Shown here: in pieces, positions 30,308 to 59,503 of the stretch
How the letters are laid out: each line of letters starts with the position of its first letter
Numbering within the stretch: the stretch's first letter is position 1
NCBI GenBank assembly: GCA_023391185.1
Contig: JAEWBI010000020.1
Span: forward strand, 5,592 to 69,591
Direction of reading: 5' to 3'
Origin: Bacillota bacterium
Lineage (GTDB): Bacteria > Bacillota_I > Bacilli_A > RF39 > UBA660
DNA length: 64,000 nucleotides
The notes under the pieces: model-generated
What the model saw: the letters and a program-made list of their open reading frames with translations, nothing else
Told to the model about the DNA's origin: nothing
Database searches by the model: none
Translations under genes and position numbers: made by a program

Positions 30308-32486
30308 TAAGTTGTGATAGAGCTATCTCTCTATATACATCACAAGTTTCCATTAATTTTTTATGATTTCCAATACCAACTACTTTACCTTCATCAAGGA
30401 CAACTATTTGATCAGCATTTAAAATAGTACTAATTCTTTGAGCTACTATAAATACTGTTTTATCCTTAGTAACTTTTGCCAACTCACTACGTACTTTTGC
30501 ATCTGTCTTTAAGTCAAGAGCAGAAAAACTATCATCAAATATATATATATCTGGATTAATTGCAATAGCTCTTGCTATAGATAATCTTTGTCTTTGACCA
30601 CCTGATACATTTGTACCACCTTGTGAAATAGATGCTTCATAGCCACCATCTAGATTTTCAATAAAGCTATTTGCTTGAGCTATTGTAGCTGCTTCTTTCA
30701 TTTTTTTGTCAGTAATTTTAGAATCTCCATATTTTATATTACTTTCAACATCACCACTAAATAGCATACCCTTTTGTGGTACATAGCCTATTTTTGATCT
30801 TAGTGATTTTGTTGAGACATCTTTTATGTTCACACCATCAATTAAAATTGATCCCTCAGTAACATCATAAAATCTAGGTATTAAATTAATTAGTGTTGAT
30901 TTTCCACTACCAGTAGAACCAATAAATGCTGTTGTTGTTCCTGGCTTAGAAATAAAGTCAATATCTGTAATTACATCTTCATTAGCATCTGGATATCTAA
31001 AGCTAACTTTTCTAAATTCAACTAATCCTTTTTTAGAACTATCAAATTTCTTTAAACTTTCATTATCCTTAATTGATGACTCTGAATTAATTATTTCAAC
31101 TATTCTATTAGCTGATACACTTGCTCTTGGAAGCATAATACTCATCATACCAATAAATAAGAATGCCATTATTATTTGCATACTATATTGTATATAAGCC
31201 ATCATATCTCCAACTTGCATTACTCCATCATTTATACCGTATGCGCCTTTCCAAACGATAGCAACACATACTACATTCATAAGAAGTATCATAATTGGCA
31301 TCATAAGTGCCATAGTTCTATTAACAAATAAGTTAACCTTATTTAAAGAAGAATTGGCATCATCAAATCTTTTTTCTTCATGTTTTTCATTATGAAAAGC
31401 ACGTATAACTGGAATACCAGTTAATATTTCTCTAGTTACTAAATTTAACTTATCAATTAGTATTTGTATTTTTTTAAACTTAGGCATTACTATAGTAAAT
31501 AATCCAGTAATTATAATTAATAAAGCAGCTACAGCAGCAGCGATAATCCATCCCATTGAGCCCGAAGTATTAGTAGTTTTAATAATACCACCTACTGCAA
31601 TAATTGGTGCATAGAATACTACTCTCATAAGCATAACTATTATTTGTTGTACTTGCTGTATATCATTAGTAGTTCTAGTTATAAGTGAAGCAGTGCCATA
31701 GTTCTTCATTTCTGTCTTAGAAAAACCTACTACCTTAGAGAATACTTTATTTCTTAAAGTCATAGCAAGTCTTGCTGCTAAGCGTGAACCTAATAAACCA
31801 ATTATTATAGCAATAAGCATAATTAGTAATGCTATGCCTAACATTTTAGCACCACTAATTAATATATAATTAGTTTGTAATTTACCTGTATCAATACCAA
31901 TATGTTTATACTCATCTTTTATAGACATAATGGCTGTACTAGTAATAATTGTCTCTGGCATTTTCTCTAAAGACTTATTTACATTTTCAAGCATTGAATC
32001 AATTTGCTCAGCAGTCATGTATTTCAAAGCTGTATAGAAATCTCCATTTGCTGGAATATCAAATCCATATTCAGCTGCTTTTCCAGAAGAAATCATATAA
32101 TCAATCATCAGTGGTAATGATAAAATATCACTTATCTTTGTTTTGACATCTTCATCTTTAGTATTTAATTTATATAAATTTTCTGTTTCTAATAAAGGAT
32201 ATTTATCCTCATAATCATCATAATCTTCAGTAGTTAATTTATCATAATAACTATTTATATATTCTTTTTCATCATCTGACAAAAACAATGATATATTATC
32301 ATATTTACTTGCAGAAAGTACTGTAGCTGCAGCATTTTCAATACCATTTTGCTGAATACCAACATTAACTATTTTAGAAGTATAATCTGGTAATGCAAGA
32401 TCACAAAATGCTTGTGTTACTAGTAAAAGAATTATAAAAATAATTGAAATTATTGAAGACTTTAAATATTTAAATAATTTTAACAT
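30282..32486 (-). CDS. ABC exporter, fused permease/ATPase subunit, with a ~180-aa extracytoplasmic insertion between TM1 and TM2.
   Basis: Walker A GSTGSGKST, signature LSGGQRQR, Walker B IYIFDDSFSALD. The first TM is at residues 10-30 and the next at about residue 210. There is a 26-nt overlap with the partner ABC gene. Confidence 0.85.
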   Translation of the reverse strand: MLKLFKYLKSSIISIIFIILLLVTQAFCDLALPDYTSKIVNVGIQQNGIENAAATVLSASKYDNISLFLSDDEKEYINSYYDKLTTEDYDDYEDKYPLLETENLYKLNTKDEDVKTKISDILSLPLMIDYMISSGKAAEYGFDIPANGDFYTALKYMTAEQIDSMLENVNKSLEKMPETIITSTAIMSIKDEYKHIGIDTGKLQTNYILISGAKMLGIALLIMLIAIIIGLLGSRLAARLAMTLRNKVFSKVVGFSKTEMKNYGTASLITRTTNDIQQVQQIIVMLMRVVFYAPIIAVGGIIKTTNTSGSMGWIIAAAVAALLIIITGLFTIVMPKFKKIQILIDKLNLVTREILTGIPVIRAFHNEKHEEKRFDDANSSLNKVNLFVNRTMALMMPIMILLMNVVCVAIVWKGAYGINDGVMQVGDMMAYIQYSMQIIMAFLFIGMMSIMLPRASVSANRIVEIINSESSIKDNESLKKFDSSKKGLVEFRKVSFRYPDANEDVITDIDFISKPGTTTAFIGSTGSGKSTLINLIPRFYDVTEGSILIDGVNIKDVSTKSLRSKIGYVPQKGMLFSGDVESNIKYGDSKITDKKMKEAATIAQANSFIENLDGGYEASISQGGTNVSGGQRQRLSIARAIAINPDIYIFDDSFSALDLKTDAKVRSELAKVTKDKTVFIVAQRISTILNADQIVVLDEGKVVGIGNHKKLMETCDVYREIALSQLSEEELSNV

Positions 32487-33091
32487 ATTTTCTCACTTTC
32501 TATACCTTTTCTTATTATATTAATTTGTCTAATATAATGTTCTTTTATTCTATTTTTTTGCTCAGGATGTCTGAATGTATGCGCGACATTATGGAAAAAT
32601 AATGGCATTAGTATACTAATTAGTACATATATATCATCTTCATTTATATTTAGTGTGTCTTTATTAATATTTTCAATAATTAGCTCATCATTTTTTTTCT
32701 TACAATCTTTTCTTGGTAAAGAATGCTCTAACCTTTTAGAATTCATGTTTAAAAAGAAATTATTCATTAAGAGGCTAATTTCAGAATCACTTATATCTGT
32801 AACAATATCATAAATTTTTATATATGAATCAAAAATATTTCCATTACTTTCTTTTAAAATATCAACAAATTTTTTAATTAAATTATCTTTATAAAAGGCA
32901 AATATATAATTATATATATCTTCCTTATTTTCAAAATATAGATAGAAACTACCTCGTGGCATATTTATATCTTTGATGATCTGGTTAATTGAAGCATCTT
33001 CAAAAAGATTCTTTGAAAACTCTTTTTTCGCAGCTTCTATTAATTTTATTTTTTTATCTTCTGATAATTTAAAAAATGCATTTGTTGGCAT
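32480..33091 (-). CDS. TetR/AcrR-family transcriptional regulator.
   Basis: A 203-aa protein with an N-terminal HTH (LFEDASINQIIKDINMPRGSFYLYF). Its stop overlaps the start of the ABC operon. Confidence 0.7.
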   Translation of the reverse strand: MPTNAFFKLSEDKKIKLIEAAKKEFSKNLFEDASINQIIKDINMPRGSFYLYFENKEDIYNYIFAFYKDNLIKKFVDILKESNGNIFDSYIKIYDIVTDISDSEISLLMNNFFLNMNSKRLEHSLPRKDCKKKNDELIIENINKDTLNINEDDIYVLISILMPLFFHNVAHTFRHPEQKNRIKEHYIRQINIIRKGIESEKIC

Positions 33092-33489: not shown

Positions 33490-34122
33490 ATGAACATAGT
33501 TAAAAAATTAAGATTTGTTATTGTTTTAATTTCATTTTCTATATGTCTTTGTTTCATGAGTACTACTTATTCAAAGTATGTAGCAGGTACAACAAGTGAT
33601 ATAGAAGTACTATTTGCTAAGTGGCAGATACTTGTTAACGATGTAGATATAACTAGTAACACTAGCTCAACTGTTTCTTTTATTCCAACTATTGAGGCAA
33701 ACGAGTATGTAGCTTCAAATAAGCTTGCTCCAACTTCAAAAGGTTACTTTGATATTAATATTGATCCAACAAATGTTGATGTATCATTTAAATATACAAT
33801 AAATTTAAATGTTCTAAATGAAAATATTCCAGATTTAATGATTACAAAATATGCTATACTACCTGAAAATTTTATTGAAGGTGATCCTCTTGATTTAATC
33901 ACCCTTAATGGTTCAACAATAACAAATACTTTTAACTATGATAAAGGAATTGAAAATTTTAGTTTTAAAGCATTTACTATTAGAGTTTTCTTTGAATGGT
34001 ATGAAGGTACTGAAGAAAGTATGAATAATGAACAAGATACTAATATCGGTGAAACTGCTGTTACTGAGGACACAAAGTTCCAAATGAGTGCAAACATTGC
34101 ATTTGAGCAAATATTTAACTAA
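33490..34122 (+). CDS. Small secreted protein with a SipW-cognate-like signal, TasA-family-like.
   Basis: A 210-aa protein. The N-terminal TM is followed by TTYSKYVAGTTSD, to be compared with the TasA/CalY motif GGGT-x-A-x-F-x-D. The downstream segment LAPTSKGYFDINIDPTNVDVSFKYTINL resembles the TasA stretch LKPGD...F.F.N.G. Confidence 0.5.
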   Translation: MNIVKKLRFVIVLISFSICLCFMSTTYSKYVAGTTSDIEVLFAKWQILVNDVDITSNTSSTVSFIPTIEANEYVASNKLAPTSKGYFDINIDPTNVDVSFKYTINLNVLNENIPDLMITKYAILPENFIEGDPLDLITLNGSTITNTFNYDKGIENFSFKAFTIRVFFEWYEGTEESMNNEQDTNIGETAVTEDTKFQMSANIAFEQIFN

Positions 34123-34212: not shown

Positions 34213-35445
34213 TTATTCTAAATTAACTTTTGAAGCAATAATAACTGGAACTACATTACATACAGTTTCTTTTGCTTCTCCATAAACTTTAGATATAATA
34301 TCATCAATTTTTTTTGCTGCATAACCTGAAGAAACATTATACTCAGAATTTGTCCAATAACAATTAGCAGTTGATAAGTAACTAAATTTATCATTATGAT
34401 AACCATAGTATCCATTATAAGTTGCTGTCTTAGTAAGTTCTGATGTCATTCGATTAGCATATTTCAAATTACCTGCTACGACATTGGAGATGCCGCTTCT
34501 TACTAAATTGGTATCCATAATATCTGTCGATATAACTCCCATAATATCACCTGCAGTTAATTCCCTTGTTGGTACCGTCCAACCATTAGTAACACTTGCT
34601 AATAACGAAGAATAGTCATTAAATGATCCTGTAGCATATGTATTTTTAGGATTAGGTAATAGAGTTACTGTATCGTCACCTAATGTATTATTTTTATCTA
34701 ATACATAAGTTGCTATACAATTATCACCTATTTCTGAACATTTTTTATTATTAACTACATCATATAAAACTGTATCTCCTAAATTATAACGCGTATCACT
34801 TGAACTGTATCCACCAGCGTATTGTTCTGCCATGATTTTTATTACAATTTGAATTGATGACTTAATTTGATAGTTAGGGTCATTTTGCTTAAGTTCTAAC
34901 TCACTTTTGTCAAACTGATATGCTTTAGTTCCCCATAAACTATCAAAAGCATCATCACCTGAATCAAGTGGCCAAGATATTGAAACTTCAAAATAACTCT
35001 CTCCACCTTTAGATAATATATAGTTCTTACTTAAATTCATATTAATGTGAAATGGATAATTATGCGATAAAACATCACCAATATAATCTGAATCAATAGT
35101 GCCTTCATTTACCACAAAATTATTTTCTGCATCACCAAGTAATCTTGCTGACTCGATTGAGTAATTAAGTTCAGCATCAGAATCGCCCAAATTCTTGATA
35201 TTAATCATTTCGTGAGATGTTTCCATACCTGGATATATATCTGAAAGTGATATAACAACCTCATTTGAAACAGGTTGACCATCTTTATTTAATTCAATAT
35301 ACCATGCTTTAACACCTATTTCTGCAGACACATCAGCTAAACCACTATATGCAAACCAGGCAAGTGTTACAGATATAAATGAAACTACAATAAAAACTAA
35401 AGACATTAAGTTTAGTTTTAAATAAAGTTTGTGCTTTTCTTCCAT
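34213..35445 (-). CDS. TasA/camelysin (CalY, peptidase M73)-like secreted protein with a SipW-cognate-like signal.
   Basis: A 410-aa protein. Signal-anchor, then TLAWFAYSGLADVSAEIGVKAW...VISLSDIYPGMETSHEMINIKNLGDSDAEL. This parallels the TasA stretch AFNDIKS...ASVNLSNLKPGDKLTKDFQFENNGS. Confidence 0.55.
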   Translation of the reverse strand: MEEKHKLYLKLNLMSLVFIVVSFISVTLAWFAYSGLADVSAEIGVKAWYIELNKDGQPVSNEVVISLSDIYPGMETSHEMINIKNLGDSDAELNYSIESARLLGDAENNFVVNEGTIDSDYIGDVLSHNYPFHINMNLSKNYILSKGGESYFEVSISWPLDSGDDAFDSLWGTKAYQFDKSELELKQNDPNYQIKSSIQIVIKIMAEQYAGGYSSSDTRYNLGDTVLYDVVNNKKCSEIGDNCIATYVLDKNNTLGDDTVTLLPNPKNTYATGSFNDYSSLLASVTNGWTVPTRELTAGDIMGVISTDIMDTNLVRSGISNVVAGNLKYANRMTSELTKTATYNGYYGYHNDKFSYLSTANCYWTNSEYNVSSGYAAKKIDDIISKVYGEAKETVCNVVPVIIASKVNLE

Positions 35446-35472: not shown

Positions 35473-36054
35473 TTAACTTTTTGAATTTGATCTTCTTTTT
35501 TCTTCTTTTGCTAGTAAAACAGAGATAAATTCATTACCAATAACAAATATTAACGGTAGGATTATAAATAAATAAAATCCTATCTTTGTACCAACAATTT
35601 TATATATTAATGAAAGCGTTACAACTCTGTATTTTACAACTCCATATAACTGGCTTTCATAAACTATAGGATCTTCAACTATATTAGTTAATCCTTTAGA
35701 ATGGAAAATATAATCTCCATTTTCATCCTTATTAATCTCTACAACTTCATGTGTAATAATCTTGTCTTTAAAACTTCCACTCTTGCCTAAATAACTAATA
35801 GTATCCCCAACTTTAATCTCAGATGGTTCAACTTCCTTTGAAACTAGAACGTCTCCTATTTTGTATCTAGGTTCCATACTTCCTGAAATTACTGTAAACA
35901 TTCTATAATTGAAGAATGATAACTTATTATCACTAAAACGTTGTAAAAATACAACAAGTATAAATGCGATTACTAAAAATATTACAATTGCATTTAATAT
36001 TTTACTAATAATATTTATTATCTTATTTTCTTTTAATTGCTTAATTAAATTCAT
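35473..36054 (-). CDS. sipW: SipW-type (ER/archaeal-type) signal peptidase I.
   Basis: A 193-aa protein with an N-terminal TM, catalytic box VISGSMEPRY, HEVV, and a C-terminal TM (IGFYLFIILPLIFVIG). This is the architecture of SipW rather than the P-type SipS/T. Confidence 0.8.
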   Translation of the reverse strand: MNLIKQLKENKIINIISKILNAIVIFLVIAFILVVFLQRFSDNKLSFFNYRMFTVISGSMEPRYKIGDVLVSKEVEPSEIKVGDTISYLGKSGSFKDKIITHEVVEINKDENGDYIFHSKGLTNIVEDPIVYESQLYGVVKYRVVTLSLIYKIVGTKIGFYLFIILPLIFVIGNEFISVLLAKEEKRRSNSKS

Positions 36055-36063
36055 TTTTTTTAC

Positions 36064-37200
36064 CTACAAATAATCTTGTGTCCTTTCTAAATATTCATCT
36101 ATCGCGCTTTTAAATTTATCTTTAATATCTGCGCTACCTACTAAGACCTTATTTTTTTCGTCTTTTATTTCAGCTGTAACCATGCTAAGTATTTGTTCCT
36201 CTGTAATTTTAATTCCACTGTTTAACATAAGCATGACTACTCTTTGCAATTGCTGCTTTATCATAATAGCAGCATATTTTTTCAATTGTTCTTTTTCTTT
36301 TCTTTTAGATGCATAAATAGAATCCAGAACAAAATAATCCATCAAAAATGAATCATCCAAAATACCTTTTAATACATCATTACCTGTACTATCTGAACTA
36401 TCGCTAGAATCAGATAAATTCTCATCATAAGTCTGTAAAAATGTCCATAATTTTGTTGCTACTTGAAAATTAGGATTCTTTAAAATTAGGTTTGTCTTTT
36501 TAATTGGTGGAATTACAAATGGGACATGAAGTTTATTTAAAGCTTTTATCATTTCACTTCGTTGCCACCCAGTAAGATAATCCTTAACTCTTTTAAGTCT
36601 TTCCTTAATTTTTTGTATTTCTTTTTTAAACTCTGATATATTTTGACCTTCAGGTAATTCTTCTAGTGAAACTTTAAATTCAATACTTACTTTTTCTCTA
36701 GAAGTTTTTGTTGAACCTGCATATTCTAAAGTTTTGGTGCTTTTTGCTTCAATGTCATCAAGCATAGCCTGTTTTTTTAAAACAAAGCGGTTCATAGTAT
36801 CTATTAATGTATAAAGAAACCTATTCTCATAAGTATTATAGGTTTCTTCAGGAAATGTTATAAATAGTTTAGATGGTTCAACATCTTCAGTCTGTTCATT
36901 AATTTTATCAATAAAATGTGTATGTCTAGTTAAGTGTTTTACACTATCTACACTAGTTTTTTTTGCTTTTTCTATTTTTACTATAGCAGACTCAGTATAT
37001 AGTGCCACTTTAGCTCTAACAACAATATTTTCAAGATATGGACAAGCATATTCAAGTTCTTCTAGCCAATTTAAAGACATTAGTTCACTTTCAAAATCTG
37101 ATTTGAAATACATTTCTGATTTCAGATTTTTTTTAAATTGTTCACTTTTTTTATTTAACTCTGCATCTACTTTAATTCTTGATTGCCTTGCCATATACAT
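36064..37200 (-). CDS. Hypothetical cytoplasmic protein, encoded directly downstream of the McrB-like AAA+ gene (the McrC-position partner).
   Basis: A 378-aa protein with no TM. It is K/E-rich with an SDSSDSSDS run. Only 10 nt separate it from the upstream gene. No convincing PD-(D/E)xK motif was seen by eye. Confidence 0.4.
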   Translation of the reverse strand: MYMARQSRIKVDAELNKKSEQFKKNLKSEMYFKSDFESELMSLNWLEELEYACPYLENIVVRAKVALYTESAIVKIEKAKKTSVDSVKHLTRHTHFIDKINEQTEDVEPSKLFITFPEETYNTYENRFLYTLIDTMNRFVLKKQAMLDDIEAKSTKTLEYAGSTKTSREKVSIEFKVSLEELPEGQNISEFKKEIQKIKERLKRVKDYLTGWQRSEMIKALNKLHVPFVIPPIKKTNLILKNPNFQVATKLWTFLQTYDENLSDSSDSSDSTGNDVLKGILDDSFLMDYFVLDSIYASKRKEKEQLKKYAAIMIKQQLQRVVMLMLNSGIKITEEQILSMVTAEIKDEKNKVLVGSADIKDKFKSAIDEYLERTQDYL

Positions 37201-37210
37201 TCACCACTCT

Positions 37211-38752
37211 CTAAAATGACTTCTTAAGTCTTTCTAAATATTGAATACATTCAGACATTGATTCATCTCCAAATGTCTTATGCAAATACTTTATAAAAGG
37301 ATCAATTTCATCACGTATTAATGAAATATTTAACTGATCAAATTTACGAAATATCTTCTTTGAAATAAAATAATCAATACCATCAACTTCTTTACCACCA
37401 CATGAAACATAAACTGGTACAAAGGCATTTAATTGTTTCATAATACGATTACCGAACGCTACGCGGAAATGATTGATAACATAAAGTTCCATATCTTGTA
37501 TTTTTTCAATTGATTTTGCGCTAACTGGTTTGTCTTCTTGAGCCTTTTTAAATAGTGATTCAAGATAACTTGAATTGATACTCATAGCTTCTTGTTCTCT
37601 ACTCTTAAATGGATCACAACGAGTATTGATATCAATTGGCATTGCACGGTCATAAACTTTATCTGTAACCATAAAAGTTGAATCATCATTATTGATTGTT
37701 CCAATATACCACAAATTGCCAGGTAATTTAAGTTTACCATCTACAATTCTTTCAGGATCATCTGCCCAACCACTTGATACAACAGGAATAATCCACTCTT
37801 CTCTAGAAGGCATTTCAAGAATTGAAAGCATCTCAGCGAAATAATATTCAACACGCGCGATATTCATTTCATCTAGAATAATTGTATGAATATCATCATC
37901 TAGACTAGCAACATAAAGTTCTACCAAAACTTTTGTTTCATTAAACTTTTTAGTGAACTCATTGAAGTACCCTATTAATTCTGTTTTATCTCTCCAAGAA
38001 GGTTCTACTGAAGCAACGCAAGAATCTTTATTTATAAATTTTCCCCATGCATATGCAAGTGAAGTCTTACCTGTTCCAGAAATACCTTGTAAAATTATTA
38101 ACTTACCAGAAGCTAATCCAGCAATAAATGCTCTTAAAAGTCCTGGTTCATAGTATAAGTGCAATTGTGTTGCCGAAAAGCAACGAAAGTTATCAACTAA
38201 TTCTTCCAGAGTAAGATTGTTATTGTAATTTTTAGGTTTAAATCCTTTGAATCTCCTATCAATACTACATAACATAGGGAATCTAGAATTAATACCTGCT
38301 AATTCATCTGCATCTAAATCTTCTTCCTCTGATAAGTTATCGCTCTCTTCTTTTTCTTTATCATCTGGTTTTAATCCTAGTTGCGAAACTTTCATAGCCA
38401 TAATTTCATCTTTTTCTTTCATAAGTTTCGCAACTTGATCATTTAAATCTGATATTTCATTTAATAAATCTTCTTGATTCATTCTCTTTTTACCTAGTTT
38501 AAAGAAACGCATTAATCGTGTAACTATTAAAAAGATTACTAAACCTACAATTATAACAAGGACTGCAACTAATATCCATAACAATATCCATTCGCCCTCT
38601 TGAAAACTTCCCTTATAACTATTTACTATCTTTAAGTATGATTTAATACTAAACATTTGGGCTAATCCTTCACCTATAGCCTTTATAATGAATAATAAAC
38701 CATCGAAAAATATTGAAATAAATTCATAGAAAAATCTTAAAAACGTATTCAT
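37211..38752 (-). CDS. Membrane-anchored McrB-family AAA+ (GTPase-type) protein.
   Basis: A 513-aa protein with an N-terminal ~80 aa carrying two TM helices, then a coiled coil. Walker A is ILQGISGTGKTS and Walker B is IILDEMNIARVEYYFAEMLSILE. The McrB-signature-like segment is YIGTINNDDSTFMVTDKVYDRA (cf. McrB GTMNTADRS...D.A.RRRF). The ATGA overlaps the upstream SipW-fusion gene. Confidence 0.65.
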   Translation of the reverse strand: MNTFLRFFYEFISIFFDGLLFIIKAIGEGLAQMFSIKSYLKIVNSYKGSFQEGEWILLWILVAVLVIIVGLVIFLIVTRLMRFFKLGKKRMNQEDLLNEISDLNDQVAKLMKEKDEIMAMKVSQLGLKPDDKEKEESDNLSEEEDLDADELAGINSRFPMLCSIDRRFKGFKPKNYNNNLTLEELVDNFRCFSATQLHLYYEPGLLRAFIAGLASGKLIILQGISGTGKTSLAYAWGKFINKDSCVASVEPSWRDKTELIGYFNEFTKKFNETKVLVELYVASLDDDIHTIILDEMNIARVEYYFAEMLSILEMPSREEWIIPVVSSGWADDPERIVDGKLKLPGNLWYIGTINNDDSTFMVTDKVYDRAMPIDINTRCDPFKSREQEAMSINSSYLESLFKKAQEDKPVSAKSIEKIQDMELYVINHFRVAFGNRIMKQLNAFVPVYVSCGGKEVDGIDYFISKKIFRKFDQLNISLIRDEIDPFIKYLHKTFGDESMSECIQYLERLKKSF

Positions 38753-41001
38753 ACTTCCTCACTCCCAAAATCCCCAACTTTATTAGATATATCTTCATAA
38801 ATTACTTTTTCTTTAAGATCATCTGGTATTAGTGAAACAATTTCCGCCAAATTCTCTAATTTTTTATTAACAAAGATATAATCTGCTATATATATATTGC
38901 CACGGTCTTTTTCTTTAATATTGCTGTCTTTACTAAAAACTAAAGCAAACTTATATCCACTTTTTTTGATTTTTTTAATAAAAACCTTATGTTTCAATAG
39001 TTCTTGAAATGTTACTAAGATAGCTGTATTCTCTTTAGAATATTTATCTTCAATCATCTTTAGTAGTTTTTCAAATTTCTTTTCTTTATCATACAAAGTC
39101 TCTGGAATATGGAAAACATACTTTTTACCAAAATCAAATGTTGTCATATCATTAATTAGTTGAATTAATAATAAAGTCACTAATACAGATATTTTATCCT
39201 CAGCCACAATTCCTTGTTCATATGTTTTATCTATAACATATGAACTATATACTTTACTAAAAGAAATATTATGTTCTAATTTCAATCCATATATTTTATT
39301 TTTAGTTGCTATTTTTTCAATATTTAGATTAAATAAATTTGTCTCTAATTTTTCAATAAAACTTTTTAATAATTCAGCATATTTTTTTTGTATAATAATT
39401 ATTTGTTTAATTAATGTATCAATCTTGTATTCATCTAATTCCTTTGAATATCTAGTCAATAGTTTTTTATAAAAATCACGTCTTGGACCTATTTCTTCAA
39501 TTGAATCTTTGGCCTTTTCAATATTAGCTATCAACATAAATACTTGTGCGTATTCATTAACTATTGCTTCATACTTGCGATTAGAACCAGTATATTTCTT
39601 AACCAAACCAGTTGATACATTGTTAATTGTCTTTTCCAGTCTTAACATTAGACTTTTCTTACTTGTTTCACTACTATCTTCTTCATAGTAATTATAATAC
39701 TTAGCATCAATATAATTAATTGTGAAAGTATTCTTAATGTTATTTCTAATTCCTGTTTCACTAACTTTTACTTTATCACTATTTATTAAAACCTTTACTA
39801 AACGATTAATCTCTTCTTTTTTTATTAACATAGCAGTATCAATTATATTTTGATTTCCTTTTCTGTCTTTCAAAAAGTTTAGATTTATTTTAGTTAAGCT
39901 TGAATCTTCTAAAATAATTTCATCGTCTTCTTCTACATCTTTATTAATAACAGGAGTATTAGTTGAATCTGATTGTTTACTATTTTTCATATTATTTGCT
40001 ATTTCTAATAGTGCAGAGCTATCTAATTCAGATATATCTACAGAAATATTTCTATATAATAAAGTTTTATCTAAATTATCCTCATCTTCAACTATATTAG
40101 TTTTTTCAATTAATTCCTCTTTTTCAACTTTATATTTTTCATCAACTTCATCATTTACTGAAATTACTCTAAAGAATGAGGTTTTACCAAGTTCATTTTC
40201 TAAATCAGCTTCAGATATTTCATCATTTTTTTGACTCGAAATTTCTTTAACCTTTTCTTCTTTTATTTCAACCGGTATATCTTCTAACCTATTTGAAACA
40301 TTAGGAACTTCAACAATTTTTCTCTCAACTTTTACTTGTTTAGTTTGTTCTTTTGAAGCTTCTATTTTTTTTCTAGGATAAACAGACTTAATAAATTTTA
40401 AAACAACTGGTATTATTCTCTTTTCAAGTACTTCTGAAATTTCATTAACTAGCATTGTTTTAGGTTTGTTACTATTTTTCTTATCGTCTTCTTTATTTTT
40501 CTTAACAACTATACTAAATAAAACTAATGTAATTATTAGAGTTATTAATACTGCTGGGTTAAATATTGTCTTTCTTAAAATTCCAAAACCAGCTAATTTT
40601 GCAACTTTCTTTCCTACTATTTGACTTTGATCTATTGGATCATCTTTTGTATTATTAGCATCACCTTTTGTTACATAAGTTCCATTATAAACCTCTATAA
40701 TACGGTGTGTTACATACTCTCCATCAATTTCATATGTTACAATATCATTTAATTTAACGTCTTGTGTTATTTTGGTAATAATCCAATCACCAGCACTTAT
40801 TTCTTTTTCCATACTGCCTGTTTGAACTTCAAATATTGAATATCCAAAAAAGTCAGTATAATTTTTATTCATTATTTTAGTTTGTATGCCTGTATATATT
40901 GTTACTAATAAAATAATTCCAAATATACCTATTAATATATTCAATAAAAAATTTATTATTTTTTCAATTATATTTATTTTTTTGGAATCGATATTTACCA
41001 C
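38749..41001 (-). CDS. SipW-type signal peptidase I domain fused to a ~550-aa C-terminal (predicted cytoplasmic) K/E-rich domain.
   Basis: A 750-aa protein. It has an N-terminal TM, catalytic boxes FEVQTGSMEKEI, VTHRIIEV and TKGDANNTKDDP (boxes B, D and E of S26 peptidases), a second TM (VLITLIITLVLFSIVV), and then a long hydrophilic extension. Confidence 0.65.
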   Translation of the reverse strand: MVNIDSKKINIIEKIINFLLNILIGIFGIILLVTIYTGIQTKIMNKNYTDFFGYSIFEVQTGSMEKEISAGDWIITKITQDVKLNDIVTYEIDGEYVTHRIIEVYNGTYVTKGDANNTKDDPIDQSQIVGKKVAKLAGFGILRKTIFNPAVLITLIITLVLFSIVVKKNKEDDKKNSNKPKTMLVNEISEVLEKRIIPVVLKFIKSVYPRKKIEASKEQTKQVKVERKIVEVPNVSNRLEDIPVEIKEEKVKEISSQKNDEISEADLENELGKTSFFRVISVNDEVDEKYKVEKEELIEKTNIVEDEDNLDKTLLYRNISVDISELDSSALLEIANNMKNSKQSDSTNTPVINKDVEEDDEIILEDSSLTKINLNFLKDRKGNQNIIDTAMLIKKEEINRLVKVLINSDKVKVSETGIRNNIKNTFTINYIDAKYYNYYEEDSSETSKKSLMLRLEKTINNVSTGLVKKYTGSNRKYEAIVNEYAQVFMLIANIEKAKDSIEEIGPRRDFYKKLLTRYSKELDEYKIDTLIKQIIIIQKKYAELLKSFIEKLETNLFNLNIEKIATKNKIYGLKLEHNISFSKVYSSYVIDKTYEQGIVAEDKISVLVTLLLIQLINDMTTFDFGKKYVFHIPETLYDKEKKFEKLLKMIEDKYSKENTAILVTFQELLKHKVFIKKIKKSGYKFALVFSKDSNIKEKDRGNIYIADYIFVNKKLENLAEIVSLIPDDLKEKVIYEDISNKVGDFGSEEV

Positions 41002-41135
41002 AACTAAACGCCCACTTTCCTATTTTCATTGTCTATATAATTTTACCATAAATCGACATTCTTTACAACAATATCAAAATTATTTTAACAAAAAAATACA
41101 TGATTAAGTTCATGTATTTTTTATATTATATTTTA

Positions 41136-41714
41136 CTATACTGATTGTTCTTCTTTACCATATTTTAGTTCTATAATTAATGCATAGAATTCATATATAA
41201 ATATTAAGAAACTTGGTACAAGAACAATAAATAAAAATCCCCATTTTGATTCAATTATTGATAAAAAACCACCAATTTTTTCATATACTTTGCTAGATTT
41301 ACCTATAACAAAATCCATTGAATAAGCTGCTCCGTTTTCAAAAGAAATCGCGTCATCATCAGGATGTGTCTGACCGACTTTTCCTAAATCAATACTAACT
41401 GAACCATCAGAAGCAATTTTATATGCAAATATTTCATCACCTACTGCAATTTTGTCTATCTTTTTAGCTTCTACAAAAACTAAATCACCTTTTTTATAAT
41501 TTTCAGAAGATAAGTCTCCTTTTATTAAGATTAAAGATGTGTCCCCAAATTGCGTAACACCATATTTATTAAAATTTAATAATAGTAATGTAACTGCTAT
41601 TACAAATGCAAAAAATATGACTCCAAGTATTCCTACTAATATTTTCTTTATAGCTTGTATTACCTTCATTTTATCACCTACTACAATAATAACATAATTC
41701 GACATAGTTATCAA
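41136..41714 (-). CDS. SipW-like pseudo-peptidase (SipW topology but lacking the catalytic SGSM/H motifs).
   Basis: A 192-aa protein with N- and C-terminal TM segments and the spacing KGDLVFV...VGDEIFAY like SipW. The Ser box is replaced by LILIKGDLSS. Confidence 0.45.
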   Translation of the reverse strand: MITMSNYVIIVVGDKMKVIQAIKKILVGILGVIFFAFVIAVTLLLLNFNKYGVTQFGDTSLILIKGDLSSENYKKGDLVFVEAKKIDKIAVGDEIFAYKIASDGSVSIDLGKVGQTHPDDDAISFENGAAYSMDFVIGKSSKVYEKIGGFLSIIESKWGFLFIVLVPSFLIFIYEFYALIIELKYGKEEQSV

Positions 41715-41737: not shown

Positions 41738-42640
41738 TTAACACCCACTTGTTTCTTCAACAGAAAATTCTTCAACATTATAATTTTGACTAAAAATTTT
41801 CTTGTAAAACATAAGGCTCTTACTGTCCTTTCCATTTATACTAAATTTAATTTCGTTAATATATCCATTCGAATCACTCATATAAGAACTAAAGCTATTA
41901 ATATCTTCATTTATGGATAATTTATTAGAATCCCAAGTAATTTTAATACATTTTTCACTTTGAAAAGAATTAGATACAACTAATCTGTCATAATTAGTGT
42001 AATTCTTATAATTCAAAGATATTTTCTCAGTTGTTATATCACTTTTATGAAGTATAAAATTACCACTTAATGTTTTACGATATGGTGAATTACTTGTAAG
42101 AGTTATATTGACAACTAAATCAGTTAAGGTATACTCAGGATCAGTTGCAACAATGTCAAAATATAACTTATTCTCTACTGTTTCATTTTTCCACTTATAC
42201 CCTTCTAATTCACATGTTTCCTTATTATAACTACTTACATCAATTCCATCAGTACTATTATTTTCACAATTTTGGATACTAGTAAGTACCCCGTCTTGTA
42301 CATTTGAGTCACTACCATTTAAATTGCATTTTGCTTTAGTAGCAGCTTCACCTTCGATAGTACACGTTGCAGTATAATTAATATCATAGCCTGTTGCGAC
42401 ACTACTATTCAGACTATTTTTAATATTAAAAAATACACTATCACCATTCCAAAGATTATTAACATTTTTTAAAGTAGTATCACCTAAGTTTTCACTGCTC
42501 AGATAAAAACCGTTTGATTCTAAATAATAATTCCATATTGAATTTGATACATATTTTCCATAAGTAAAACTAAGTATACCTATAAAGAAGCTTATTATAA
42601 GTATCATTATTTTAAATTTATGTTTTTTTATTAATTCCAT
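41738..42640 (-). CDS. Secreted Cys-containing hypothetical protein with a SipW-cognate-like signal.
   Basis: A 300-aa protein with an N-terminal TM followed by SFTYGKYVSNS. It is Asn/Ser/Thr-rich and has about 10 Cys. Confidence 0.45.
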   Translation of the reverse strand: MELIKKHKFKIMILIISFFIGILSFTYGKYVSNSIWNYYLESNGFYLSSENLGDTTLKNVNNLWNGDSVFFNIKNSLNSSVATGYDINYTATCTIEGEAATKAKCNLNGSDSNVQDGVLTSIQNCENNSTDGIDVSSYNKETCELEGYKWKNETVENKLYFDIVATDPEYTLTDLVVNITLTSNSPYRKTLSGNFILHKSDITTEKISLNYKNYTNYDRLVVSNSFQSEKCIKITWDSNKLSINEDINSFSSYMSDSNGYINEIKFSINGKDSKSLMFYKKIFSQNYNVEEFSVEETSGC

Positions 42641-42651: not shown

Positions 42652-43203
42652 CTAATCTTTTGTTTTTTGCCAGCTATTAATTTCTATATTAATAAAATCA
42701 ACTAAATCTGCATTTATCTGATCATTATACTCTGATGGAAAACTAACTTTAAGTTTATATTGTTTTGCTTGTGCTGTTTCAAATCCTAGTTCCTGTACTG
42801 GAGAATTACAAACTAATTCGTTTTCTGCATTACGTGAATAATTCTCATCACATGTAAGAACCAATTGCTCTTCTTCAGCATTTAAACTATATAAACTAAT
42901 AATAAGAGGAACTAGATGATATGTCTTAATTATTATTTTATATTCAACTGCTACATTACTTATTTTATCTAAATCATTATTAGTTATGGAAAAATCATAT
43001 TCTTTAGTTTCACCTGGCTTTAAATCAATTATTGATAATTCAAGCTCATCTAAACTTTTTGTATTAAATACAAATTTTGCAATTCCTCTATCTATATTTT
43101 CCATTGTAACATTGGAATTGAAAAATGAATATGTTATTCCACAACCAAATAATATCATTGCAAGCAATAAAACAATTGTTAAAAGTTTATATTTTAGCAC
43201 CAT
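42652..43203 (-). CDS. Small TasA-like secreted protein with a SipW-cognate-like signal.
   Basis: A 183-aa protein with GCGITYSFFNSNVTMENIDRG...LSIIDLKPGETKEYDFSITNN. Compare the TasA segments GGGTWAAFNDIKS and NLSNLKPGDKLTKDFQFENNGS. Confidence 0.55.
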   Translation of the reverse strand: MVLKYKLLTIVLLLAMILFGCGITYSFFNSNVTMENIDRGIAKFVFNTKSLDELELSIIDLKPGETKEYDFSITNNDLDKISNVAVEYKIIIKTYHLVPLIISLYSLNAEEEQLVLTCDENYSRNAENELVCNSPVQELGFETAQAKQYKLKVSFPSEYNDQINADLVDFINIEINSWQKTKD

Positions 43204-43210: not shown

Positions 43211-46200
43211 CTACTTAACAATAAAATATTTATCTATTGTTCCAATCTTCTTATTTCCATCATATAATTCAAATACGTACTTATACCCAGTATTTTCAAA
43301 ATTACTAGTTATAAGCGTTATGATAAATTGATTATATTGATTTGGATCTGTTGATAAATAATAAACATTATCACTTGCGCTTACTAGCGTATTTGTAACA
43401 TAACTAGCTAAATTTACAATTGAATAGTTTTGATTATACGCTGTTAATAGATCCTTTTTATATAATGAAACTCTTATATTAGGATCAGATAATAGACCGT
43501 TTTGTTCAATATTTAATTCTACATCTACAGTAGTATTTGTTTTACTAATAATTCGGTCTTCACTATTCATGTTTACATCAAAACCATATTCAATATTATT
43601 TAAATTAGTATTTGTTACAGTAACAGGAATAATGATTTCATTAGTATTTATTTCATTTGAATAATAGCCATCAAATGCTACATAGTTAGTAATTTTCAAA
43701 TAATATGTGCCGTAAGCTAAATTACTATTATTATCATAAGTAGTAACCTTTAGTTCTTTAGTGTAATCTTGTAATGCACTACCTAAATTAATTCTAATGA
43801 TATTATCTTTACCTGGATAATAAACGTTTTCTCCAATTTTAAATACCATATTTTTAAGGTACTCGCTACCAAGAGAAGTACCATTTGAATCAACTAATTT
43901 AATAGATAATCCTGTTTCCTTATCTTCATACTTAGTATCAATTATTTTATGAGTATCTAAATATTTATAAACTATATTACTGTTTAATGGAATAGTTGTT
44001 ACAGAATCACTATTAAGAACTATTGGGTTTCCCGTGTATGATGTCGATATATTCAAATAAGCACTTGATGATTGATCATCAATAACTGAATATATATTAA
44101 ACTTACTAATGGTATTATTTAAAGTTGGTCTAACAGTATTACCACTTTGATTATTTAACTGTATCTGCATACTAACATCACTATAATTAACATTTATTTC
44201 AGTATTTGATAGGTCTAAAATAATACTAAAGTTTTCATTAACCTCACTATTATTGGTATAAGTACTCTCACCAAAATATTTAATGGTAGAGCCTGTACCT
44301 ACTTCTTTAAATAAAGTGAATGGATAAGTGGCCTTTTTAATACAATTAGTATCTTCTACTGGACAGCTTTCTTCATACCCATAATTATCTTCACTTGTGT
44401 TGACAACATATTCATAAACATTATTTGTTATGTAATCAATTAAGGTTATCTTTGATCCTAATGGTAAAAGAATATTGGAAACTAAATTATGAGTATGATT
44501 ACTATAATCTAATTCAGTCGTACTTGTATAAGTGAAATTCATCATAATTGATGATTTATCTGTTATATTATTACCATCTTCTATATAACTAGAGCTATTT
44601 CGACCTATTGTAAAACTATTTTGTGAATAACCATCAAATATTAAATAATCAGTACTTAAGTAGCTAGCGTAATTAAAATTATCCATTATTTTAATATAAA
44701 TAATATGAATACCGTTTGTATTAATTAATATATTTTCTTCTGCAGAATAACTTGTCCATTTATCATCAGATAAATTATTTAAATCATTAGTACTTAACAA
44801 TGTATCAGTAATATAATATCCTATACTTGAAATACCTGATATAGTATCACTTTCTGTGACTGTAATTTCTTTTGGCCCATCAATATAAATTTTCTCTGGG
44901 TTACTTTGAAGTTCAGTCCACTGTCTTGTTTCCATATTTATAGTTGCACTTGCTCCAGGTAAATCAAGAATTAATAAATCACTATTTATATAAAATATAT
45001 TGTCATTATAATCTATTACTTTAGCATATATAATATAAAATCCCTCGTCAGATATTTGTACAATGTTTGAATATATATTCCATGTACCAATATTTTTTAT
45101 CTCATTTAAAGTAAGTGGAGTTACAGAATTACTTATATAATAATATATTTCTTTTATAGGTCTTAGTTCATCCGTTTCTTCTATACTAAAAGTAATATTA
45201 GAACTTAACTTAACTTCACTAATTTCAGGACTAAAATTATCCCAAGAATATATATTTGCATGCAAATTTGCGATTGGATTATTAATATCATCAATAAATA
45301 AAATTGGTAATGATTCATCATTATAAACCCATACATCTTCATTATTTATTAGTAAATTATTAAAATCAGTAAATTCATCATAAAATAAATTATTAACCAT
45401 ATTTGTTTTTATTTGTAAATCGGAAACTGTTACAGTATTAAATTGTCCTAATACTATGCCATTATCTTCTTCTATAGCAGAAACTAGGCTAACGTAATAA
45501 GAATTATTTATGTTAACACTAGTATTATTAATAGTTCCTATAGTATAAATATCACTTGTATCAAAAGTTTTATCTATCAATATAGGACTTGTATTATTAG
45601 TTATGGTACCTACTAAACCGCCAATTTTTGTTCCTGTAATTATGCCGTTATTATAGTCTTTTGAGAGAGTAGCACTTGTTGTATTTTTTTCAATTGTTCC
45701 TACTAAGCCACCGCCTATAATATTACTACTTACATTTCCTGTGTTATATGACTGATTAATATGAGCTGTGTTAACCATAGTTCCAATTAAACCACCTGCT
45801 ACACTATAGCCATATATATAGCCTTTATTAACAGTATTTTCAAATGTTGTATTATTTGCTATAGCAGTTATTCCACCAGATACACCGTAATTATAGTTTA
45901 CATTATAACTAATATTTGAAAGAGTTAATGAAGCACCATCTAATGACCTAGTAATTACTGACAAATTATTTAACACAGTAGTTCCAAGATTAATTTCAAA
46001 CGAACCATTTGAAAGAGTTACTCCATTAATACTTATAGATGTTTCATTTTCAGTCGCACCACTAATTGTATAGTTACCAGTAATAGATGTATTTAATATT
46101 TCTCCACCTTCATATGGAATATAATTTGACAAATCTAAATTCGTAATCGTTTCTAATGAACTCATATTAATTTCTACATCCTCTAAATTAGATGTTGATA

Positions 46201-46909
46201 ATTTAGATAAATCACTATTTTTACCTATTACATATCCATTAAATAAGGCGTTTTTTATAGTAGCATTTGTTGAAGTACTTGTGATACCTGCGGTAACCTT
46301 GCCACCATATATTAATGAATTTTCTACATATAAATCCGTAATACTTCCCTGCATATTAGTAAACAAAGCAAGTTCCTCACTTGTTTCACTAGTAATATAA
46401 GAGCCATATATTCTATATGAATTGCCATTAAAATATCCTTTAAAATTATTTAATGAAGGAAATACATTTATACTTCCAGCTTCATTTGTTTTTTCTATGT
46501 CAGAATAATACTTGTTTGTATATTCCTCAACATAATAAGTTGTTCCATTTAAAATATATAAAATACCTTGTTCTTGGTCATATTTAAATACTCCATTATT
46601 TAATACAATGTCATCACTTAAAGAAAAATAAAGACCTTCATAAGTATTATTAGCAAGTTCATTAGAAAAATAAGCAAGCTCTGAACCGTTAGATATTATG
46701 TATGGATCACTAGATGTTCCTATTCCTTTTTTATAACTAGTTGCAACTGTTCCATCCCAAACTAAATTAGTTACTATATTACGATGTTTAAACCTCGCAA
46801 ATGTAGGAATACCAATAGACACAAATAAAATAAGTCCTATAATAAAAGATAAAAAGACTATTTTTTGTGATTTATTTAAGCCACTAACAAATCTTTTTAT
46901 TTGCCTCAT
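43211..46909 (-). CDS. Giant (1232 aa) Asn/Thr/Ser/Gly-rich secreted protein with a SipW-cognate-like N-terminal signal. Probable fibre or adhesin.
   Basis: The signal-anchor is followed by GIPTFARFKHRN. The composition is beta-rich and repetitive (GGLVGTI..., NNTT...), with no LPXTG motif. Confidence 0.5.
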   Translation of the reverse strand: MRQIKRFVSGLNKSQKIVFLSFIIGLILFVSIGIPTFARFKHRNIVTNLVWDGTVATSYKKGIGTSSDPYIISNGSELAYFSNELANNTYEGLYFSLSDDIVLNNGVFKYDQEQGILYILNGTTYYVEEYTNKYYSDIEKTNEAGSINVFPSLNNFKGYFNGNSYRIYGSYITSETSEELALFTNMQGSITDLYVENSLIYGGKVTAGITSTSTNATIKNALFNGYVIGKNSDLSKLSTSNLEDVEINMSSLETITNLDLSNYIPYEGGEILNTSITGNYTISGATENETSISINGVTLSNGSFEINLGTTVLNNLSVITRSLDGASLTLSNISYNVNYNYGVSGGITAIANNTTFENTVNKGYIYGYSVAGGLIGTMVNTAHINQSYNTGNVSSNIIGGGLVGTIEKNTTSATLSKDYNNGIITGTKIGGLVGTITNNTSPILIDKTFDTSDIYTIGTINNTSVNINNSYYVSLVSAIEEDNGIVLGQFNTVTVSDLQIKTNMVNNLFYDEFTDFNNLLINNEDVWVYNDESLPILFIDDINNPIANLHANIYSWDNFSPEISEVKLSSNITFSIEETDELRPIKEIYYYISNSVTPLTLNEIKNIGTWNIYSNIVQISDEGFYIIYAKVIDYNDNIFYINSDLLILDLPGASATINMETRQWTELQSNPEKIYIDGPKEITVTESDTISGISSIGYYITDTLLSTNDLNNLSDDKWTSYSAEENILINTNGIHIIYIKIMDNFNYASYLSTDYLIFDGYSQNSFTIGRNSSSYIEDGNNITDKSSIMMNFTYTSTTELDYSNHTHNLVSNILLPLGSKITLIDYITNNVYEYVVNTSEDNYGYEESCPVEDTNCIKKATYPFTLFKEVGTGSTIKYFGESTYTNNSEVNENFSIILDLSNTEINVNYSDVSMQIQLNNQSGNTVRPTLNNTISKFNIYSVIDDQSSSAYLNISTSYTGNPIVLNSDSVTTIPLNSNIVYKYLDTHKIIDTKYEDKETGLSIKLVDSNGTSLGSEYLKNMVFKIGENVYYPGKDNIIRINLGSALQDYTKELKVTTYDNNSNLAYGTYYLKITNYVAFDGYYSNEINTNEIIIPVTVTNTNLNNIEYGFDVNMNSEDRIISKTNTTVDVELNIEQNGLLSDPNIRVSLYKKDLLTAYNQNYSIVNLASYVTNTLVSASDNVYYLSTDPNQYNQFIITLITSNFENTGYKYVFELYDGNKKIGTIDKYFIVK

Positions 46910-48707: not shown

Positions 48708-48873
48708 CCACCTTTTCTTCCTCTATTACAATTTTTGCTTCTTCTAAAAATTGCGTGAAGTCTATAATATCTTCATAAACTTTTACTAATTCTTCTAAAG
48801 TAAGAGTTGATAAATCAAAATTAACTGTTTTTTCTTCTTTCTTCATAATATCACCCTTTTTCTTCTTATTCAT
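48691..48873 (-). CDS. Small acidic hypothetical protein (60 aa), translationally coupled on both sides.
   Basis: It overlaps the upstream paralog by 8 nt and the downstream gene by 17 nt. It may not be a real gene. Confidence 0.3.
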   Translation of the reverse strand: MNKKKKGDIMKKEEKTVNFDLSTLTLEELVKVYEDIIDFTQFLEEAKIVIEEEKVGGKDE

Positions 48874-57633: not shown

Positions 57634-58024
57634 ATTAGTAATGATAATAACTCTAATTGATAATCAAGTCATTAGTTCATCTAATATTAACAGGGAGATT
57701 AATCATATTAAGTGAAATGATTGAAACATTCATTACTATTATTATTCATAGACAAAATGTTTGCTTATAATACCCTATTTATAGGCTATTCTAGAAACTA
57801 TTGTTCAAAGCGTATCAAATGTATACTGTAGTGATTAAATAGTCTTATATGGCGATTAAACAAGTTGTTTTATATACTGGGGGGTATCAGAAATATTTAC
57901 TAAGTTATATTATGAAAAAATGGCGATAGCACCTTGCTTAATCGTGTTGCAATAATAATCGAATGATAATCTTAATGTTTCTAATCATAATCACATAAAT
58001 TCAATTAGATAAGGTTGTGATATA

Positions 58025-59461: not shown

Positions 59462-59503
59462 TACTTCTTTTTATTGTTTTAATGATATAATATATATGGT
59501 GAT

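Follow-up and report, generated by a model that had tools for sequence, protein, structure and literature searches.

What is a GTPase related to that of the McrBC defence enzymes doing inside a cluster of SipW-type signal peptidases? The question is posed by five genes in a stretch of 64,000 nucleotides (called the window here) from contig JAEWBI010000020.1 of a Bacillota bacterium, where such a GTPase is encoded next to a McrC-like protein and among the peptidase genes. A preliminary description of the window had drawn attention to this arrangement, proposed that it forms an energy-dependent assembly or secretion machine, and offered a captured McrBC-like defence module as the alternative. 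By its sequence the locus can be placed in CoCoPALM, a class that has been named and remains uncharacterised. It is read here as a vertically conserved chromosomal apparatus of the CoCoPALM type, in which the GTPase pair would have been rebuilt as the cytoplasmic part of a SipW-dependent surface-protein system, and the probability of this reading is put at about one half.

A Compact Operon

Five minus-strand open reading frames (ORFs) are packed tightly between positions 35473 and 41714, at the very places given in the preliminary description, and the five types of product listed there were all recovered: a SipW-type peptidase of 193 amino acids (aa), a 378-aa protein, a McrB-like protein of 513 aa, a SipW peptidase fused to a large additional domain (750 aa) and a SipW-like protein that lacks the catalytic Ser and His. 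The additional domain is called X. The ATGA overlap of the SipW-X fusion gene with the McrB-like gene was verified in the sequence, the gap of 10 nt between the McrB-like gene and the 378-aa gene agrees with the earlier claim, and 9 nt lie between the 378-aa gene and the gene for the 193-aa SipW. Composition is uniform across the locus region of the window. In DNA as AT-rich as this, scanning for promoters and terminators is uninformative: promoter-like sites numbered 124, where 137 were expected, and the one terminator-like site lay inside a gene. The Rfam and tRNA scans of the window were empty.

The GTPase and Its McrC-like Partner

The 513-aa protein is laid out as a hydrophobic segment (residues 5-30), a transmembrane (TM) segment (60-78), a coiled coil (about 95-129), an acidic linker, the GTPase core (about 190-400) and a C-terminal helical domain. 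Its proposed place in the McrB family held up well. A profile built from 20 diverse homologues and run against all PDB sequences matched McrB alone (1.9e-5), and in hhalign the AAA+ core of the family matched that of E. coli McrB at a probability of 96.9%, so that both searches led to McrB and not to an unrelated AAA family. In the same 20 homologues Walker A (GISGTGKTS), Walker B (LDEMN), the sensor or signature motif INND(D/E)S and Arg369 are invariant; within the signature, Asn354, Asn355 and Asp356 never vary and residue 357 is either D or E. The protein can be assigned on this evidence to the McrB-family GTPases, and GTPase activity is predicted for it. When aligned with MAFFT, the signature takes an NxD register together with the residue that follows (NND-D in the window, NHD-E in a Deinococcus plasmid protein and NMD-H in a B. 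cereus plasmid protein, against NTAD in E. coli), a register that is to be read with the caveat that an ungapped HMMER alignment would also permit NNDD as NxxD.

The protein had been credited with a two-TM anchor. Hydropathy supports one strong TM segment, at 60-78, and the conserved hydrophobic segment at 5-30 is weaker, so the anchor is better described as one confident and one possible TM segment. The AAA+ domain is predicted to be cytoplasmic, as is the coiled coil by the positive-inside rule, and the heptad-like conserved segment at 97-129 contains 12 invariant residues among the 20 homologues. Scans with Pfam and NCBIfam found no DNA-binding family in residues 1-185, the region of the TM segment, coiled coil and acidic linker.

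The 378-aa protein had been suspected of being a McrC-type partner, and a Pfam DUF2357 domain (PF09823, the McrC N-terminal type) was indeed found in it, at 27.4 bits against a cut-off of 23.3. Among the matches listed, PF09823 stands alone in 120 of 120 homologues, which are 339-393 aa long and mostly about 377. The protein has no TM segment by hydropathy. The accompanying question, whether the partner has a PD-D/ExK fold, is answered by Pfam, NCBIfam and PADLOC, which report neither a PD-(D/E)xK nor any other nuclease family in it. Its AlphaFold2 (AF2) model is poor, with a predicted local distance difference test score (pLDDT) of 60.6; in this low-confidence model long helices at 124-148 and 188-213 flank a beta-hairpin and residues 188-377 are all helical, which suggests that helices are inserted in the DUF2357 domain and that the C-terminal half is entirely helical. 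Searching PDB sequences with the McrC-like profile yielded no match, and neither did hhalign of the family against E. coli McrC, a comparison that is uninformative since E. coli McrC belongs to a Pfam family other than DUF2357. Because the McrB motifs are intact, the partner has a DUF2357 domain and no nuclease family is present, the pair is considered to be derived from McrBC and to have parted with both the DNA reader and the nuclease.

Signal Peptidases and the X Domain

TIGR02228, the model for the archaeal and endoplasmic reticulum (ER)-type signal peptidase I, matches both the 193-aa protein (78.6 bits) and the N-terminal domain of the fusion (60.1 bits, residues 15-166) above its cut-off of 51.85, and the Bacillus SipW model matches the two below its own. 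In the 193-aa SipW, Ser59, His102 and Asp128 are invariant in 78 of 78 orthologues, the first Asp of GDxN being replaced in this family by a hydrophobic residue. The peptidase domain of the fusion keeps Ser63, His99, Asp114 and Asp120 in 59 of 59 sequences, and human SEC11A/C aligns with it around the Ser, His and Asp motifs. The third protein has the two-TM topology of SipW, matches TIGR02228 only weakly (E 0.02) and shows no conserved Ser or His in 62 orthologues. On these residues the first two are classed as active-type peptidases and the third as a pseudo-enzyme. The ORF of the latter as listed opens at a TTG 15 codons upstream of a conserved Met (41670-41714) and gives 192 aa; since its first 14 residues are missing in 54 of the 62 orthologues and gene callers on identical contigs agree on 177 aa, the true start of the pseudo-SipW is probably Met16 (41669).

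TM segments at 15-33 and 148-166 of the fusion would place the peptidase domain outside and residues 167-750 in the cytoplasm. The cytoplasmic location of the tail was thus described correctly, and its size, given before as about 550 aa, is roughly 580 aa. The fusion varies from 633 to 798 aa across loci, and the linker at 168-379 is recognised only in the closest locus. For X itself, residues 380-750, the AF2 model has a pLDDT of 84.2 and a predicted template modelling score (pTM) of 0.84, and consists of a six-helix bundle followed by an alpha/beta domain. Among the structures closest to it in a fold search are the cyclic di-GMP (c-di-GMP) receptors LapD and FimX and the protein-binding YdiV/STM1697, and the modelled fold is of the EAL TIM-barrel-like type. 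In alignments of 28 and 67 X sequences the catalytic motifs of EAL domains (EAL, N, E, DDFGTG, K, E) are not conserved, nor is any other catalytic motif; X has no Pfam EAL match, no recognisable c-di-GMP- or ligand-binding motif, and no GGDEF or HAMP module.

Synteny and spacing were counted in the best 80 of at least 522 GTPase-bearing stretches, from a collection with one genome per species. X is fused to SipW in 28 loci, and in 37 of 40 unfused loci it is a standalone gene of 304-354 aa, the other three being contig-end fragments. In the more distant clade two genes take the place of the fusion, one for the upstream active SipW (about 170 aa) and one for X (about 330 aa), the latter lying next to the McrB-like gene on its upstream side; the 750-aa protein is therefore a lineage-specific fusion of SipW and X. 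In 70 of 73 loci the distance between the end of X and the start of McrB is -4 to +41 nt. When 1.84 billion representative proteins were searched with a profile, only 375 representative clusters of X relatives were found, and the full-length sequences among the 150 X matches listed have two architectures only, standalone and SipW-X fusion, so X is regarded as specific to this system. Fusion and constant adjacency together are Rosetta-stone evidence and argue for a physical chain of SipW, X, McrB and McrC. The earlier suggestion that the cytoplasmic tail of the SipW fusion docks to the GTPase gains from X being a separate gene directly upstream of McrB in 40 loci and from the adjoining position just described, and the tail is the best candidate for this role.

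A Conserved Chromosomal Locus

At least 522 species-level stretches were confirmed to carry a relative of the GTPase, nearly all of them from uncultured gut or rumen Bacilli, under labels that vary between Bacilli, Tenericutes, Mollicutes, Erysipelotrichaceae and Clostridium sp. A number of records that carry the locus (L004, L006, L020, L023, L025, L028, L040 and others) are titled "uncultured Muribaculaceae" or "Oribacterium sp.", which looks like taxonomic mislabelling or bin contamination. The gene order X, McrB, McrC-like, SipW and secreted protein is almost invariant in the 80 loci, down to a GTPase identity of 56%. Downstream of McrB, the McrC-like gene is adjacent in all 80, followed by SipW (78), a p410-like secreted protein (72) and a convergent p210-like gene (66); upstream, a SipW/X gene (SipW or SipW-X) is found in 75 and the dead SipW in 62. 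Median gaps, taken over 73 loci, are 15 nt from McrB to the McrC-like gene and 2 nt from there to SipW. The five-gene arrangement is far beyond chance, and the proposal that the GTPase pair is wired physically and evolutionarily into the cluster of SipW and secreted proteins is amply borne out. Median identity is highest for the GTPase (59%) and lower for SipW (44%), the McrC-like protein (34%) and the secreted proteins (27-35%); to be the best-conserved component, as the GTPase is here, is typical of motor subunits.

Plasmids and phages yielded only relatives of the GTPase domain, at 37% identity or less, and no whole system. Two plasmid loci that were inspected pair the GTPase with a DUF2357 or nuclease-domain partner, which is a CoCoNuT-like arrangement. 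A McrB-like GTPase domain 32% identical to residues 181-493 is also encoded at 40037-41155 of the phage record MT835511.1, a 45.9-kb unannotated "Bacteriophage sp." from human faeces. Among the conserved neighbour genes, Pfam, NCBIfam and PADLOC scans detected no nuclease, HEPN or nucleic-acid-binding domain. Because the synteny is near-invariant in at least 80 species, no nuclease is present and the plasmid and phage relatives are distant, the two inspected having CoCoNuT-like partners, the captured defence island or insertion offered as the alternative in the preliminary description was rejected, as was an origin from a plasmid or phage.

A Member of the CoCoPALM Class

Within the NxD branch of McrB GTPases, Bell et al. 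(eLife, 2024; PMC11090510) found a large clade fused to an FtsB-like TM and coiled-coil module and named it CoCoPALM. The class was linked with signal peptidases, coiled coils were reported on both the McrB and the McrC homologues, and the association of GTPase and signal peptidase, the same as that seen here, was read as pilus assembly; CoCoPALM was treated in two sentences and deferred to a later paper (PMC11090510), and no later CoCoPALM paper was found in the literature searched. Every testable feature of the class is present in the window: a McrB GTPase of the NxD type with an N-terminal TM and coiled-coil module, a DUF2357 McrC homologue (PF09823) with helices in its low-confidence model, the association with signal peptidases and the absence of a nuclease. 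No feature of the locus speaks against membership. The FtsB homology of the 513-aa N-terminus is weak, and its predicted topology is inverted. On these features the locus is assigned to CoCoPALM, and the claim that such an arrangement has not been described therefore fails. What appears to be new are X and its fusion to SipW, the set of two active peptidases and one dead one, the secreted families and the conserved status of the locus in hundreds of species. The EAL-like X, the SipW-X fusion, the dead SipW, the secreted families and the distribution as a core locus in small-genome gut Bacilli are all absent from the CoCoPALM paper, the text of which mentions neither EAL nor TasA, and the supplement files examined hold no CoCoPALM, signal peptidase or FtsB entry (PMC11090510).

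The Secreted Proteins and Other Genes of the Locus

The conserved neighbourhood extends from about 33.5 to 56.6 kb of the window, roughly 23 kb (Table 1). All of its secreted proteins have a signal anchor followed by the motif (S/T)-x-(A/S/G)-x-(F/Y), which resembles a SipW-dependent signal peptide, and the TIGR04088 model of the SipW-type signal peptide matches 3 of 18 STYAWF members below threshold. The p210 and p183 families are homologous (hhalign 96.6%), and the STYAWF family resembles both in its N-terminal part only (hhalign 84.7%). These proteins had been called TasA-like. That label was dropped because profile searches of PDB and of Pfam/NCBIfam with the STYAWF, p210, p183 and p555 families gave no informative match; only the signal motif and a sub-threshold match of p183 to Peptidase_M73/camelysin (PF12389; 18.9 against 22.5 bits) point to TasA.

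The size of p410 is 404-429 aa in the clade of the window, as against about 200-250 aa in the distant clade, which suggests that a C-terminal extension of about 200 aa was gained in the former. In the distant clade p183-like and then p300-like genes stand directly upstream of X, and in other loci one to three STYAWF copies lie beside the cluster. The STYAWF paralogue at 53648-55267 carries an extra C-terminal surface Ig-like domain (PF16403, 4e-18, residues 467-538), consistent with a surface-exposed and possibly adhesive variant subunit. The cytoplasmic p555 has a marginal match to DUF2935 and no PDB sequence match. A TetR-family regulator and two ABC exporter genes (28436-33091) flank the locus only in its closest relatives (L001 and identical contigs) and are not part of the conserved system.

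Table 1. Genes and domains of the locus, in the order of their positions in the window.
Feature	Position	Strand	Basis or occurrence
p210, secreted; signal anchor then TTYSKY; convergent with the operon	33490-34122	+	Same position in 66/80 loci
p410, secreted; signal anchor then TLAWF; immediately downstream of SipW	34213-35445	-	N-terminal TM; 72/80 loci
Second SipW-type signal peptidase of active type, 193 aa	35473-36054	-	TIGR02228 match, invariant catalytic residues
McrC-like partner, 378 aa	36064-37200	-	Pfam DUF2357; no TM segment
McrB-like AAA+ GTPase (predicted), 513 aa	37211-38752	-	McrB PDB matches, motifs, TM prediction
SipW-X fusion, 750 aa	38749-41001	-	TIGR02228 over residues 15-166, X domain
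X domain of the fusion, residues 380-750	38752-39864	-	AF2 model, family alignments
Degenerate EAL-like alpha/beta part of X (modelled), about residues 555-750	38752-39339	-	AF2 model
Charged low-complexity linker of the fusion, predicted cytoplasmic, residues 168-379	39865-40500	-	E/K-rich sequence
SipW domain of the fusion, active type, residues 1-167, two TM	40501-41001	-	TIGR02228, invariant residues
Pseudo-SipW, probably 177 aa from Met16	41136-41669 (ORF as listed to 41714, 192 aa)	-	Orthologue alignment
p300, secreted, candidate minor subunit	41738-42640	-	N-terminal signal anchor
p183, secreted, candidate minor subunit	42652-43203	-	N-terminal signal anchor
p1232, giant secreted protein, candidate adhesin or tip component	43211-46909	-	Signal anchor; 39/80 loci; no Pfam family
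p555, cytoplasmic helical protein	47040-48707	-	No TM; near the cluster in 34/80 loci
Five STYAWF secreted paralogues, candidate major subunits	48866-50029, 50046-51299, 52211-53470, 53648-55267, 55314-56618	-	Translations
Conserved 231-aa membrane-anchored protein inside the STYAWF array	51314-52009	-	42% identical to the counterpart in locus L055

Comparison with Other Known Systems

With the McrBC systems of E. coli and T. gammatolerans the locus shares an AAA+ GTPase core with Walker A, a DExN-type Walker B, an Asn/Asp signature and an Arg finger, a partner related to the McrC N-terminal domain, and adjacent genes that are probably translationally coupled. It differs from them in that a TM segment and coiled coil take the place of the N-terminal DNA-reader domain, the signature is NxD rather than NxxD, the McrC-like partner has no PD-(D/E)xK nuclease, and the whole is a housekeeping-like conserved locus instead of a mobile defence gene pair. 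The CoCoNuTs share with it a GTPase of the NxD branch and the presence of coiled coils, with about 35% GTPase-domain identity between the window and plasmid pairs that have DUF2357 partners. However, CoCoNuTs are soluble and always come with HEPN or other nucleases and with RNA-binding domains, whereas here the GTPase is membrane-anchored, nucleases are absent, and the neighbours are peptidases and secreted proteins.

On the side of the peptidases, the tapA-sipW-tasA operon of B. subtilis, sipW-calY/tasA of B. cereus and bsa of C. perfringens also place SipW beside secreted proteins with a T-x-A-x-F-like signal end and have multiple paralogous subunits. Unlike the locus described here, these operons have a single SipW and encode neither a nucleoside triphosphatase (NTPase) nor a McrC-like protein, an EAL-like protein or a dead peptidase. 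In C. perfringens the SipW-operon protein BsaC needs the type IV pilin PilA3 for its secretion, and some genes associated with type IV pili are required if BsaA oligomers are to be secreted efficiently (PMC11580942). In type IV pili a dedicated peptidase works with a membrane platform and a hexameric NTPase, a combination that is only a functional analogy to the present locus and involves no homology: the AAA+ motor is of the McrB clade here and PilB/PilT there, the peptidase is a Ser/His/Asp SipW here and the aspartyl PilD there, and the signal peptide is cleaved after the hydrophobic segment here and before it in type IV pili. Two proteins with EAL domains among the top X matches are also instructive as regards X, since the EAL-degenerate FimX contacts a motor and LapD controls an extracytoplasmic protease that releases an adhesin; X differs from both in having no GGDEF, HAMP or recognisable c-di-GMP-binding motif.

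A Proposed Mechanism and Its Rivals

The following mechanism is our inference from what is described above, namely which domains are present, how they lie in the membrane, which catalytic residues are kept, which genes are fused or adjacent and how well they are conserved. Some ten secreted proteins would be exported with N-terminal signal anchors that end in the (S/T)-x-(A/S/G)-x-(F/Y) motif, would be retained in the membrane and would be released through cleavage by the two active ER-type SipW peptidases, with the dead SipW paralogue probably serving as a scaffold or holder. At the cytoplasmic face the McrB-like protein would be tethered by its TM segment and coiled coil and, by analogy with McrB, would form a hexameric ring, into which the nuclease-less McrC-like protein would be inserted as a GTPase activator. 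X would bridge this ring to SipW, covalently in the lineage of the window, and GTP hydrolysis would be coupled, mechanically or as a gate, to the cleavage and release of subunits, their polymerisation into a surface fibre and passage through the wall. The whole apparatus would then be a functional analogue of the type IV pilus system with its peptidase, platform and hexameric ATPase. In this respect the functional idea of the preliminary description is in line with the comparative data and with the prediction already published.

Several points weigh against this reading. The hexamer, the GTPase activity and all of the contacts between proteins are deduced, and no anatomy or experiment has been published for any member of the class. 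The model of the McrC-like protein is of low confidence and the hhalign comparison with E. coli McrC is empty, and the STYAWF, p210 and p183 profiles match neither TasA nor anything else in PDB or Pfam by sequence. The TasA/CalY fibres that have been characterised, and their archaeal TasA-like counterparts, assemble by donor-strand exchange and are not known to involve an NTPase, which makes a need for energy unexpected a priori, and we know of no AAA+ protein of the McrB clade that acts on proteins or membranes.

That known TasA-type fibres need no energy speaks for the best of the rival explanations, a regulatory switch. Here X would be a degenerate EAL receptor for c-di-GMP or for another nucleotide or protein signal, the GTPase would act as a timer or checkpoint, and SipW would be toggled from the inside out in the manner of LapD/LapG, with fibres that polymerise by themselves. 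The EAL-like fold devoid of catalytic motifs, the presence of LapD, FimX and YdiV/STM1697 among the closest structures and the covalent fusion of X to the peptidase across the membrane all suit such a role. However, a full AAA+ ring with an activator would be an expensive timer, it is the GTPase and not the sensor-like X that is the most conserved part, and X is poorly conserved and has no recognisable ligand-binding motif, so that the switch is regarded as doubtful. A motif search for GG[DE]EF proteins in 1.5 Mb of DNA found none, in a sample biased to this locus and hence uninformative.

A role in defence or abortive infection is improbable. The locus would in this case be a CoCoNuT-like immune sensor with a membrane or envelope effector, one that, for example, sheds or remodels surface receptors on infection. 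The ancestry of the GTPase fits: its nearest relatives (up to 37% identity) come from plasmid pairs of the McrBC/CoCoNuT type, in which the partner has a DUF2357 or nuclease domain; its core is matched by PDC-M26A, a candidate-defence profile of PADLOC (3.4e-35); and Bell et al. placed CoCoPALM beside the CoCoNuTs (PMC11090510). The company that the GTPase keeps does not: the conserved genes encode no nuclease, HEPN or nucleic-acid-binding domain, and half of the locus consists of structural-looking secreted proteins. Defence systems show a patchy, island-borne pattern; here, by contrast, synteny is strict and conservation high across at least 80 species, with matches in at least 522, and the system was not found on plasmids or phages.

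Only a slim chance is given to an apparatus of the envelope, of division or of sporulation, in which an FtsB/FtsL-like GTPase would serve in septation or in making a spore coat or appendage and SipW would process proteins of the spore. It was as a constituent of spores that TasA was originally discovered in B. subtilis, and genes for SpoVAD and a PASTA kinase lie in the same window; no division or sporulation gene, however, is found in the conserved neighbourhood. FtsL-family models match residues 57-135 of the GTPase (E 0.016 and 0.034), and an FtsB assignment was made by Bell et al. (PMC11090510). The FtsL matches fall far short of the threshold, and a TM segment with a coiled coil may be all that they reflect; the coiled coil is predicted to be cytoplasmic, the opposite of FtsB/FtsL. 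Finally, a chance juxtaposition, in which a McrBC-like defence pair was recently inserted into a SipW operon, has nothing but the family origin of the GTPase in its favour and is very improbable given an order and spacing that repeat in 80 loci down to 56% GTPase identity, uniform composition, and genes that overlap or sit no more than 10 nt apart.

The reading as a GTP-coupled surface-protein apparatus can be carried a step further, to a tentative proposal that is rated below even odds. CoCoPALM would be an independent class of NTP-powered machine for Gram-positive surface filaments, with an exapted McrB-like ring, a McrC-like shaft, an EAL-like adaptor and SipW as both processing enzyme and membrane platform, and it would serve hundreds of uncultured, small-genome, spore-forming Bacilli of gut and rumen as a core organelle for colonisation.

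The Host and the Flanks of the Window

Beyond the conserved neighbourhood, the window encodes SpoVAD (9.1e-121) with small flanking ORFs at 16472-18248 and a PASTA-domain Ser/Thr kinase at 486-2222. The 181-aa product of a minus-strand ORF at 57061-57606 corresponds to no more of the D-Ala-D-Ala carboxypeptidases (Dac) than their C-terminal half (residues about 229-384), and there is no space for the N-terminal half. Because this Dac fragment, the PASTA kinase and SpoVAD are present, the organism is taken to be a walled spore-former and not a mollicute; related metagenome-assembled genomes are often labelled "Tenericutes", "Mollicutes" or "Mycoplasma". In the region 57061-60268, the Dac fragment is followed by a large serine recombinase with Resolvase, Recombinase and Zn ribbon domains (58025-59461, plus strand) and then by a 254-aa plus-strand gene, and the GC skew is reversed only at 58-60 kb of the window, over the recombinase stretch. 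The region gives the impression of a dac gene that a mobile or intervening element has entered or cut short. Directly after it, at 60293-63785, a UvrD-like helicase (648 aa) overlaps a 529-aa ORF in what may be a small defence or mobile island.

Significance

If the proposed function is true, this is a clear case in which a McrBC defence enzyme lost the parts that deal with nucleic acids and was remade into the cytoplasmic engine or gate of a system for protein secretion and fibre formation. Within the SipW/TasA-type fibre pathway, otherwise taken to work by self-assembly, it would stand as a variant coupled to energy or to a signal. The EAL-like adaptor X offers a concrete handle for tests, namely of nucleotide binding and of the interfaces with SipW and the GTPase. 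For the organisms themselves, a conserved locus of about 23 kb, or some 1.5% of a 1.5-Mb genome, would then be likely to shape the attachment of abundant, uncultured Bacilli of the gut and rumen.

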